Assembly (NCBI RefSeq): GCF_003334335.1 | Contig: NZ_QOWQ01000011.1 | Length of the DNA: 64,000 nt | Source: Escherichia coli | GTDB lineage: Bacteria > Pseudomonadota > Gammaproteobacteria > Enterobacterales > Enterobacteriaceae | Strand: one strand, 5' to 3' | In this document: positions 12,975-22,670 of the stretch, one piece after another | Position numbering within the stretch: the stretch's first letter is position 1 | How the letters are laid out: each line of letters begins with the position of its first letter | Program-made: the position numbers and the translations under genes | The notes under the pieces: generated by a model | The model's input: the letters and a program-made list of their open reading frames with translations, nothing else | Database searches by the model: none | Told to the model about the DNA's origin: nothing

Positions 12975-13013
12975 CTATCCACGGGACGATCCCCTGCGTG
13001 ACATTCACATATA

Positions 13014-13029
13014 TGAAAAAATCGTGCCA
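13014..13029 (-). promoter_or_regulatory. Sigma-54 promoter (glnHp2-like) with a weak -12 element
   Basis: On - strand TGGCAC-GATTT-TTTCA (consensus TGGCAC-N5-TTGCA) about 40 nt upstream of the glnH start. Confidence 0.65.
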
Positions 13030-13102
13030 GTTTTGCAACTCCTTGATTTTTCGAGATGCGGCAAAAACGTGATGCACGATTTATAGGGCAATACCCTGAA
13101 GA

Positions 13103-13133
13103 TGCACCATTCTGGGGCACCAATCTGGTGCGC
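13103..13133. promoter_or_regulatory. Tandem overlapping NtrC (NRI) enhancer sites
   Basis: tgcaccattctggggca and gcaccaatctggtgcgc match NtrC consensus TGCACCA-N3-TGGTGCA; about 80-100 nt upstream of the sigma-54 promoter. Confidence 0.7.
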
Positions 13134-13362
13134 TAAAATTGTGCACTCAACACAGTGATTATTTAGCGTAAAACCTGATGAAAAAACAATCTTTATGTAA
13201 CGATTGTGTGATGATGTGGATACAAAAAATTTACTTAATCAGCTGGAGATAGCAGATGGATGCACTAAATAAGTGCGTTGAGGTGGGCTGCAAAACAAAA
13301 CGGCCTCCTGTCAGGAAGCCGCTTTTATCGGGTACTAAAGTTCTGCACCATCAGCGATGGAT

Positions 13363-14010
<648 letters not shown>

Positions 14011-14126
14011 TTAGATATATTGATAAGAACAATTCTTATTTATCTGCTCGCCAGGAATTTTCGGAATAAATATGCTTTTGCATAATTCGATATATAAAGA
14101 CGGTGTAGAGGAAAAGTAGCGAGAAA

Positions 14127-14156
14127 TTCTGCATGGTTATGCATAACCATGCAGAA
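14127..14156 (-). terminator. Perfect 30-bp palindrome; probable rhtA intrinsic terminator
   Basis: ttctgcatggttatg|cataaccatgcagaa (15+15 perfect) starting 8 nt downstream of the rhtA stop, followed on the - strand by UUUCUCGCUACUUUUC. Confidence 0.5.
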
Positions 14157-14164
14157 ATGTAAAT

Positions 14165-15052
14165 TTAATTAATGTCTAATTCTTTTATTTTGCTCTCTTT
14201 GCGTACTGTCAGCGTAGACCCCATTGAAGCGGCGATGATAGCGCCGAGCGCCAGTAGCTGTATGGGTGTCAGTGTTTCTCCGAGGAAAATCATCCCGGAA
14301 ACGGCAGCCAGCGCCGGTTCCATGCTCATCAGCGTACCAAATGTCCGTGTTGGCAAACGGGTGAGGGCAATCATTTCCAGCGAATAAGGCAGAGCGGTCG
14401 AGAGAATAGCGACAGCCAGACCCAATGGAATAACCGACCAGTGCCAGAGTGCTTCACCAGCCTGAAGCGCTCCAATTGGCACGAAAATTAACGCTGCAAT
14501 CAACGAACCAATTGCCACCGTCGCAGGGCCATGTTCCGCTCCTGCGCGTTGCCCACTTAAAATGTAAATAGCCCAACAAGCCCCGGCCCCCAGTGCCAGC
14601 GCACAGCCGGTTAAATCGACATGGGAAACGTCTTGCCCCAGCGGTAGCAGGAACCACAGACCAAGAACCGCCAGCACAACCCAGACGAAATCTACCGGGC
14701 GACGAGAAGAGAACAGCGCCACCGCCAGTGGTCCGGTGAACTCCAGCGCCACCGCAATACCCAGCGGTACTGTCTGAATAGAAAGATAAAAAAGATAATT
14801 CATCCCACCCAGCGAAACGCCGTAAAACAACAGCGGTAACCGTTGCTCTTTGGCAAAGCGCAGTCGCCATGGCTTAAAGAACGCGATGAGGATCAGCGTT
14901 CCTAATGCCAGACGCAGCGCAGTGACACCCGGTGCGCCCACCAGAGGAAAAAGTGACTTAGCTAACGAGGCTCCACCCTGAATAGACGCCATGGCAACGA
15001 GCAATATGACTATTGGTAACCAGACCGGCATTTTACGTAATGAACCAGGCAT
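14165..15052 (-). CDS. rhtA: Threonine/homoserine exporter (DMT/EamA family)
   Basis: Start trimmed to MPGSLRKMPVWLPIV (295 aa); 10-TM EamA-type protein. Confidence 0.9.
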   Translation of the reverse strand: MPGSLRKMPVWLPIVILLVAMASIQGGASLAKSLFPLVGAPGVTALRLALGTLILIAFFKPWRLRFAKEQRLPLLFYGVSLGGMNYLFYLSIQTVPLGIAVALEFTGPLAVALFSSRRPVDFVWVVLAVLGLWFLLPLGQDVSHVDLTGCALALGAGACWAIYILSGQRAGAEHGPATVAIGSLIAALIFVPIGALQAGEALWHWSVIPLGLAVAILSTALPYSLEMIALTRLPTRTFGTLMSMEPALAAVSGMIFLGETLTPIQLLALGAIIAASMGSTLTVRKESKIKELDIN

Positions 15053-15404
15053 CCTTTCTCCCACAAATATCTAGACTTAAGTAAAGCGTGGAGTGTACTG
15101 GATATACCCAATGCTGGTTGAGCATTTGTTGAAAAAATTTTCCCCCGTTTTGACTAAAATGCGCCAGGATTGATGGAATCATTAGTCTGGTGATTAGGAA
15201 TAATCTGGATGAATGACAGGGAAAACATGCGTAATACTTACGCAGTTCTCTGAAAAAGTGATTTAAATTTAGATGGATAGCGGTGTATGGAAACGTTCTG
15301 TTACATGAAATGGCCCGTTAGACATCACAAATCGCGAAGAGTTTCCCATTAATTTTTGATATATTTAAAACTTAGGACTTATTTGAATCACATTTGAGGT
15401 GGTT

Positions 15405-15920
15405 ATGAAAAAAATTGCATGTCTTTCAGCACTGGCCGCAGTTCTGGCTTTCACCGCAGGTACTTCCGTAGCTGCGACTTCTACTGTAACTGGCGGTTAC
15501 GCACAGAGCGACGCTCAGGGCCAAATGAACAAAATGGGCGGTTTCAACCTGAAATACCGCTATGAAGAAGACAACAGCCCGCTGGGTGTGATCGGTTCTT
15601 TCACTTACACCGAGAAAAGCCGTACTGCAAGCTCTGGTGACTACAACAAAAACCAGTACTACGGCATCACTGCTGGTCCGGCTTACCGCATTAACGACTG
15701 GGCAAGCATCTACGGTGTAGTGGGTGTGGGTTATGGTAAATTCCAGACCACTGAATACCCGACCTACAAACACGACACCAGCGACTACGGTTTCTCCTAC
15801 GGTGCGGGTCTGCAGTTCAACCCGATGGAAAACGTTGCTCTGGACTTCTCTTACGAGCAGAGCCGTATTCGTAGCGTTGACGTAGGCACCTGGATTGCCG
15901 GTGTTGGTTACCGCTTCTAA
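15405..15920 (+). CDS. ompX: Outer membrane protein X (8-strand beta-barrel)
   Basis: Start at ATG 15405 (MKKIACLSALAAVLAFTAGTSVA signal peptide); C-terminal ...GVGYRF. Confidence 0.96.
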   Translation: MKKIACLSALAAVLAFTAGTSVAATSTVTGGYAQSDAQGQMNKMGGFNLKYRYEEDNSPLGVIGSFTYTEKSRTASSGDYNKNQYYGITAGPAYRINDWASIYGVVGVGYGKFQTTEYPTYKHDTSDYGFSYGAGLQFNPMENVALDFSYEQSRIRSVDVGTWIAGVGYRF

Positions 15921-22510: not shown

Positions 22511-22570
22511 GTGATTATCCGTCACCCCGATACTGTCGGGGTGACGGCGGCTGATGACAAATGCAAAATA

Positions 22571-22670
22571 GCCTGATGCGCTACGCTTATCAGGCCTACG
22601 CAGTACCTGCAATATATTGAATCTGCAGGACTTTGTAGGCCGGATAAGGCGTTAACGCCGCATCAGGCAT
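22571..22670. repeat. REP/BIME element
   Basis: gcctgatgcgctacgcttatcaggcctac ... tgtaggccggataaggcgttaacgccgcatcaggcat. Confidence 0.85.

Follow-up and report, generated by a model that had tools for sequence, protein, structure and literature searches.

Rho-dependent transcripts have been described as ending precisely at stable stem-loops that lack both a U-tract and an upstream A-tract; a mild bias of C over G is found downstream, and the stem-loop shields the RNA from PNPase and RNase II (Dar & Sorek 2018). The element REP325 has been reported to act both as a partial Rho-dependent terminator and as an mRNA stabiliser (bioRxiv 10.64898/2026.03.23.713779). Canonical intrinsic terminators are represented close to our locus by those of dps and ompX, whose GC-rich stems of 7-9 bp are followed by UUUUGUUUU or UUUUUGUUUUU; both have strong Term-seq 3' ends (Adams 2021), which fall at ~13295 and ~15966 of the window, i.e. 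of the entire 64,000-nucleotide stretch of Escherichia coli DNA that was analyzed. At the level of DNA, the sites detected by Dps ChIP-seq are enriched in inverted repeats (Antipov 2017, PMC5553809).

The palindrome between rhtA and dps shares characteristics with each of these systems. As in the class of Dar & Sorek 2018, a stem-loop lies just past the coding sequence, without a proper U-tract or upstream A-tract and followed by an excess of C over G, though one that runs through most of the distal spacer, and its stem and loop sizes resemble those of intrinsic terminators; it differs from that class in the short UUU that follows the stem in the E. coli copy, and its Rho dependence is putative. 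Because of this UUU directly past the stem, the E. coli rhtA hairpin is intermediate between the two terminator classes. With the dps and ompX terminators it has in common the position past a stop codon on the sense strand, but it is longer (13 bp) and AU-richer (5 G-C pairs), with the tail UUUCUCGC and a terminator score of -4.5. Like REP325, it is an extragenic palindrome between co-directional genes, for which we propose that it protects the upstream mRNA and limits read-through; unlike the REPs, which form a multi-copy family with a consensus, it is single-copy, unrelated in sequence and vertically inherited at one locus. Finally, it resembles the inverted-repeat targets of Dps in that it lies within a 420-bp regulatory fragment of dps, adjacent to a Dps-protected band, yet the affinity of Dps is higher for the promoter-proximal half of that fragment (PMC4433220, PMC5553809), and the comparison favours selection at the RNA level.

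The locus and its palindrome

The window represents the glnH-dps-rhtA-ompX region of E. coli. Many E. coli chromosomes carry the intergenic stretch with 100% identity; of 5426 complete genomes of the species, 5422 contain the region. Both dps and rhtA are encoded on the minus strand, with rhtA upstream of dps; window positions are converted to NC_000913.3 by adding 835045, which places the hairpin at 849172-849201. The elements of the locus are as follows.

13363..13866, minus strand: dps coding sequence
13867..13967, minus strand: dps core promoter and 5' UTR block, conserved and separate from the hairpin, ~160 nt downstream of it
14049..14109, minus strand: C-rich, G-poor, poorly conserved spacer past the hairpin; putative Rho-loading (rut-like) region
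14110..14126, minus strand: tail UUUCUCGCUACUUUUCC, which follows the stem immediately and forms a weak U/pyrimidine tract with interruptions (from the sequence; unconserved in orthologues)
14127..14156, minus strand: stem-loop of the rhtA mRNA 3' UTR, equivalent to the 30-bp palindrome (from sequence, fold and covariation in 36 distinct orthologous sequences)
14165..15052, minus strand: rhtA coding sequence (threonine/homoserine exporter)

The original prediction of a perfect 15+15 inverted repeat at 14127-14156, 8 nt past the rhtA stop and about 260 nt before the dps start, agrees with our measurements in every respect: TTCTGCATGGTTATG|CATAACCATGCAGAA is an exact repeat with 100% complementarity and no spacer, separated by 8 nt from the rhtA stop codon TAA (14165-14167) and by 260 nt from the dps ATG (13864-13866). 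No other perfect palindrome without a spacer has arms of 8 nt or more in the window. Among 100 random control sequences from a first-order Markov model the longest arm was 11 nt, and the expected number of palindromes with 15-nt arms is ~6e-5 per window. Two further hairpins were noticed elsewhere in the window. One (CCGTCACCCCGATACTGTCGGGGTGACGG, 22519-22547), just past a TAA, has a perfectly paired stem of 12 bp and is followed by a REP-like GCCTGATGCGCTACGCTTATCAGGCCTAC at 22570-22600; the other (GCGGAAAGCGTGATTGACGCTTTCCGC, 57398-57424), whose stem of 11 bp is likewise perfect, apparently lies inside a coding region. The loop measures 5 nt in both.

Read as rhtA-sense RNA, the palindrome becomes 5'-UUCUGCAUGGUUA-UGCA-UAACCAUGCAGAA-3', a 13-bp stem with 5 G-C pairs and a 4-nt loop. 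The stem alone contributes about -18 kcal/mol; a context of 101 nt folds at -19.9 kcal/mol (z = -4.4), a value that none of 200 shuffled sequences equalled. The palindrome is perfect because the loop UGCA is self-complementary by accident. This perfection is incidental: outside the genus Escherichia the loop measures 4-8 nt and is not self-complementary, and the symmetry at the DNA level, with a hairpin on both strands, holds within Escherichia only. A promoter scan of 13300-15400 predicted no sigma-70-like site, and hence none inside the palindrome.

The 30-mer, counted as present wherever 28 nt or more of it matched exactly, occurs in 5366 of the 5426 complete E. coli genomes, at one site each and with no annotated feature beneath; the two places reported per genome are the two strands of this single palindromic site. 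In about 56 genomes the region is present and the 28-nt exact run is missing. The occurrence at one locus in single copy indicates a vertically inherited element rather than a REP-like repeat. A search for the half-site elsewhere in the genome had been suggested along with the original prediction; it was carried out as a scan of the window, which revealed no second site with up to two mismatches and only unconvincing matches with three, and as the count of the full element, found once per genome. A permissive Rfam scan of 13000-15500 gave nothing at the palindrome, its weak matches being confined to the dps terminator. These matches, on the hairpin GCGGCUUCCUGACAGGAGGCCGUUUUGUUUUGC (13290-13325, minus strand), are below threshold (ctRNA_p42d with 26.9 bits against a gathering score of 50, STnc70 and isrD) and most likely express a generic resemblance among terminators.

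Conservation and covariation of the hairpin

A scan for Dps with one genome per species yielded 80 loci, in 77 of which rhtA is located directly upstream of dps. A strong hairpin is found at the same place in 77 other rhtA-dps loci of Enterobacteriaceae; the median hairpin has 14 pairs and folds at -17.3 kcal/mol. In nearly every genus that keeps a spacer of ~220-400 nt (typically ~300 nt), the hairpin starts 0-16 nt past the rhtA stop. Two loci of the scan come from very short contigs, one of 703 nt assigned to 'Marinobacter sp.' and one of 573 nt assigned to 'Streptomyces polyasparticus'; their Dps proteins are 92-97% identical to that of E. coli, and both contigs are apparently enterobacterial contaminants in the respective assemblies.

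The outer stem UUCUGCAUG/CAUGCAGAA is common to Escherichia, Salmonella, Citrobacter, Enterobacter, Lelliottia and others. Genera that share it differ in the inner stem and the loop, which results in hairpins of 28-31 nt in total with loops of 4-8 nt. In Buttiauxella, Cedecea, Klebsiella pneumoniae and K. oxytoca, a hairpin of unrelated sequence occupies the same position; Kosakonia and Raoultella also count among the genera with a different hairpin sequence at this place. Compensatory differences are seen in Kosakonia and Phytobacter, e.g. UUCAGCAUG/CAUGCUGAA, and E. albertii carries a double change from C-G to U-A, with diverged flanks; this E. albertii-type variant had no match among the E. 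coli genomes. In four loci of Enterobacter and relatives, outer pairs of the GGCC...GGCC type extend the hairpin to 17-19 pairs and -25 to -29 kcal/mol. Here the hairpin starts at or within the stop codon, so that a terminating ribosome would need to melt its base.

Some lineages lack the structure. The two Pseudocitrobacter and three Trabulsiella loci have a spacer of 115-130 nt in which the rhtA stop is not followed by a strong hairpin, and Klebsiella indica, with a spacer of 217 nt, has no comparable hairpin. In Pseudocitrobacter and Trabulsiella, the loss of the hairpin apparently coincided with that of the distal spacer. These lineages can thus do without the element.

Across 61 spacers of similar length, identity amounts to 0.72-0.73 in the arms, 0.45 in the loop and 0.26-0.46 in the flanks. 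The core promoter block of dps shows values of 0.58-0.98 in most 10-nt bins (one bin has 0.40), and the distal spacer 0.26-0.59. The hairpin has an invariant core, GCAU/AUGC. Conservation of the outer stem amounts to ~73% and spans Escherichia, Enterobacter, Citrobacter and Salmonella, with Raoultella sharing it in part; UUCUGCAUG/CAUGCAGAA is conserved beyond what pairing alone demands. In the distal region upstream of dps there is also a second, small inverted repeat, TTATGCAAAAGCATAA (14071-14086), which shares the motif TATGCA with the centre of the large palindrome and adjoins a modest conservation peak at AAGCATATTT (identity 0.59, compared with ~0.32 for its neighbours).

Pairing was counted on a MAFFT alignment of 36 distinct orthologous sequences. 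Standard pairs occupy 88.9% of the cells, a share that drops to 29-44% if the 3' partner is displaced by 1-3 columns, and 10 of the 16 pairs show changes on both sides. Compensatory cells number 49, as opposed to 17.5 in shuffled alignments, and the observed value was reached in none of 500 shuffles. The same helix was predicted independently by RNAalifold.

Informative with respect to the strand are the G-U wobbles, because the other strand would carry A-C mismatches at these pairs. The rhtA sense strand of the alignment contains 15 G-U or U-G cells, at no fewer than five separate positions and lineages, versus 2 A-C cells. For hairpins picked on the sense strand, the sense strand is the more stable one in 42 cases versus 12 (p = 4e-5), with 53 versus 11 G-U pairs. 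Picking the hairpins on the antisense strand introduces the opposite bias; even so, the sense strand leads by 37 to 22, a difference that is not significant (p = 0.11). Folding the whole first 65 nt gave no difference between sense and antisense (41 versus 33, p = 0.54); as the G-rich antisense flanks confound this test, the comparisons limited to the hairpin were used instead. The variable spacing of the arms, the unrelated sequences in other genera and the strand asymmetry together argue that the RNA hairpin of the rhtA transcript is the entity under selection. We consider it very probable that the palindrome is an rhtA 3'-end element acting at the level of RNA.

Tail, downstream spacer and mapped 3' ends

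In intrinsic terminators, a stable sense-strand stem-loop past the stop codon runs directly into a U-rich tract of some 7-9 nt. The stem-loop is present 8 nt after the rhtA stop; the U-rich tract is not matched by the rhtA tail UUUCUCGC, which holds 4 U in 8 nt. In E. coli K-12 three U follow right after the stem, and a second run, UUUU, lies 12 nt further on. A consensus terminator scan, which requires 5 T in 8, did not call the rhtA hairpin and called other hairpins of the region. The d'Aubenton-Carafa-type score is -4.5 at best for rhtA, as compared with +24.5 for the dps terminator and +32.8 for that of ompX. The U-tract is also unconserved: the score d exceeds 0 in only one of 78 loci, most of which have 1-4 U in the first 8 nt past the stem, and genera that conserve the hairpin have tails such as ...GCAGAAUAUCCAAUUG in Citrobacter and ...GCAGAAUAAAGGCC in Enterobacter. 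Since the hairpin was kept while the U-tract was lost in most orthologues, the conserved function rests on the hairpin and not on the U-tract. A stable stem-loop with no U-rich sequence after it is what characterizes a protective 3' stem-loop, and this is what the rhtA locus presents.

Past the hairpin, C outnumbers G by about 2:1 (1081:543 across 60 nt in 78 loci). In E. coli, the first 30-nt bin after the hairpin centre contains C10/G3 and another bin C6/G3. The skew spans most of the distal spacer; because the whole distal intergenic region is G-poor, it is not specific to the stretch that follows the hairpin.

The Term-seq tables of Adams 2021 list no 3' end at the rhtA hairpin; these lists are thresholded, and the expression of rhtA may be too low, so the missing entry is weak negative evidence. 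In one table the entry 848852(-) is followed directly by 850273(+), in another 848340(-) is followed by 850293(+), and neither mentions rhtA. Nor is rhtA among the entries of the TERMITe supplements. Literature searches combining rhtA with terminator, Term-seq, Rho or ProQ returned nothing relevant and no link between rhtA and Rho. In the INTERFACE study, rhtA is an EMSA-confirmed target of the sRNA SroA (PMC6172242). Two observations concern neighbouring 3' ends: Adams 2021 labels the strong end at 848340(-) (window 13295) as 'orphan' instead of assigning it to dps; and a palindromic hairpin, TGCGTAATACTTACGCA (15228-15248, both strands), in the divergent rhtA-ompX region near yliM was called on the minus strand by the terminator scan and coincides with the plus-strand 3' ends 850273 and 850293 upstream of ompX.

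Competing explanations and the role of the hairpin

The palindrome is positioned in a region described as regulatory for dps. The 'dps regulatory region' of Melekhov 2015 is a 420-bp fragment whose distal half was reported to be necessary for maximal dps expression (PMC4433220). By primer mapping, the 5' end of F1 is located at 14295 and the F1-R2 product measures exactly 420 bp, with the palindrome inside, 140-169 nt from F1. This location, the perfect 15+15 symmetry within Escherichia and arms that are ~73% conserved across genera would suit a double-stranded operator through which a dimeric transcription factor acts on dps or rhtA. The dimeric-regulator site for dps that had originally been considered is nevertheless very improbable in the light of the orthologues: the loop length varies (4-8 nt; total length 28-31 nt) and half-site spacing is therefore not fixed, different hairpin sequences stand at the same place in Buttiauxella, Cedecea, Kosakonia, Klebsiella and Raoultella, and G-U wobbles keep the pairing of RNA but break the symmetry of DNA. 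Moreover, the window holds no second half-site at two or fewer mismatches, the full element occurs once per genome, and the site lies ~215-245 nt upstream of the dps promoter core. To our knowledge, no regulator motif resembles the palindrome. Symmetry at the DNA level is equally needed by a cruciform, the other structural reading of the original prediction, in which the element would be a target for nucleoid proteins such as Dps. Both strands must then pair, yet the orthologues have sense-strand G-U pairs, which the opposite strand would carry as A-C mismatches, and their loops, up to 8 nt long, are not palindromic. A set of arms of 30 bp is also short for cruciform extrusion in vivo. We regard this explanation as quite improbable, although the palindrome is perfect with an AT-rich centre, its single-stranded DNA folds at -13.3 kcal/mol (z = -6.2), and inverted repeats are enriched among Dps ChIP-seq sites (PMC5553809). 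A lead that remains is the Dps-protected DNase I band '~175 nt from primer F1', which maps to ~14121 in the tail, ~6 nt from the palindrome; the oligonucleotide Y9 added the 3' arm and the tail so as to cover this protected site. The footprint comes from an in vitro experiment with protein in 5-fold excess, and of the two halves Dps preferred the promoter-proximal one (PMC4433220).

At the level of RNA, the reading of the palindrome as an rhtA terminator stands in one part and weakens in the other. That it is a transcript-end hairpin is borne out by compensatory change and sense-strand G-U pairs; that it is an intrinsic one gains little from a score of -4.5, 4 U in 8 nt of tail and the lack of a listed 3' end. 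An efficient Rho-independent terminator, in which the 13-bp hairpin and the UUUCU tail release RNA polymerase without a factor, is accordingly doubtful, though it deserves to be kept in mind: the hairpin is stable and stands directly past the stop on the sense strand, K-12 has its UUU right after the stem and UUUU 12 nt on, and the score is borderline rather than hopeless. It has to be set against the consensus scan, which passes over the hairpin, the far higher scores of neighbouring terminators with mapped 3' ends, the thresholded tables of Adams 2021, and the missing U-tract in most genera that conserve the hairpin. It is improbable that the hairpin is more than a passive transcript end, although the invariant GCAU/AUGC core and the ~73% conserved outer stem could mark a sequence-specific site for an RNA-binding protein or a regulated read-through switch that couples rhtA to the dps promoter; a DNA-level target for feedback by Dps on its own distal regulatory region belongs to the same group of readings. 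That the element is an extragenic palindrome and nothing more, arisen by chance or belonging to a dispersed family, can practically be dismissed, given the expectation of ~6e-5 per window, a random maximum arm of 11 nt, the conservation with covariation, and the absence of an Rfam match. A REP or other dispersed extragenic palindrome was rejected as a candidate, as many copies with a consensus would be expected and one site per genome was seen.

Based on the comparative evidence and the anatomy of the locus, we presume, with a probability of about 0.6, that the palindrome reflects in DNA an RNA stem-loop that defines and protects the 3' end of the rhtA mRNA, with termination largely by Rho. 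Points that speak against this model are the missing 3' end in the tables of Adams 2021, the unspecific C-over-G skew, the non-significant strand asymmetry for hairpins picked on the antisense strand, the excess conservation of the outer stem, and the lineages devoid of the hairpin. According to this model, RNA polymerase leaving rhtA would be stopped, mainly by Rho, within the spacer, which is untranslated, rich in C and poor in G; some weak intrinsic termination at the UUUCU tail might be added in E. coli. Exonucleases working from 3' to 5' would then trim the transcript back to the hairpin. The predicted outcome is a stabilised rhtA mRNA, with limited read-through into the promoter region of dps, which follows at a distance of 160-220 nt, so that the hairpin may serve as an insulator of the dps promoter against rhtA read-through.

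The rhtA hairpin is an uncharacterised example of a well-known type of element and, as such, an ordinary feature; a conspicuous palindrome in a much-studied region is thereby accounted for. The 420-bp fragment known as the dps regulatory region includes the 3' end structure of the upstream gene, and effects ascribed to its distal half, e.g. a weak promoter-like site or Dps footprints, could partly reflect the rhtA hairpin. rhtA is a target in the engineering of threonine-producing strains, where elements of mRNA stability matter in practice. Furthermore, the locus offers a clean single-locus case of a hairpin conserved without its U-tract, and it bears on the question of how many E. coli gene ends arise by processing after Rho termination as opposed to intrinsic terminators.
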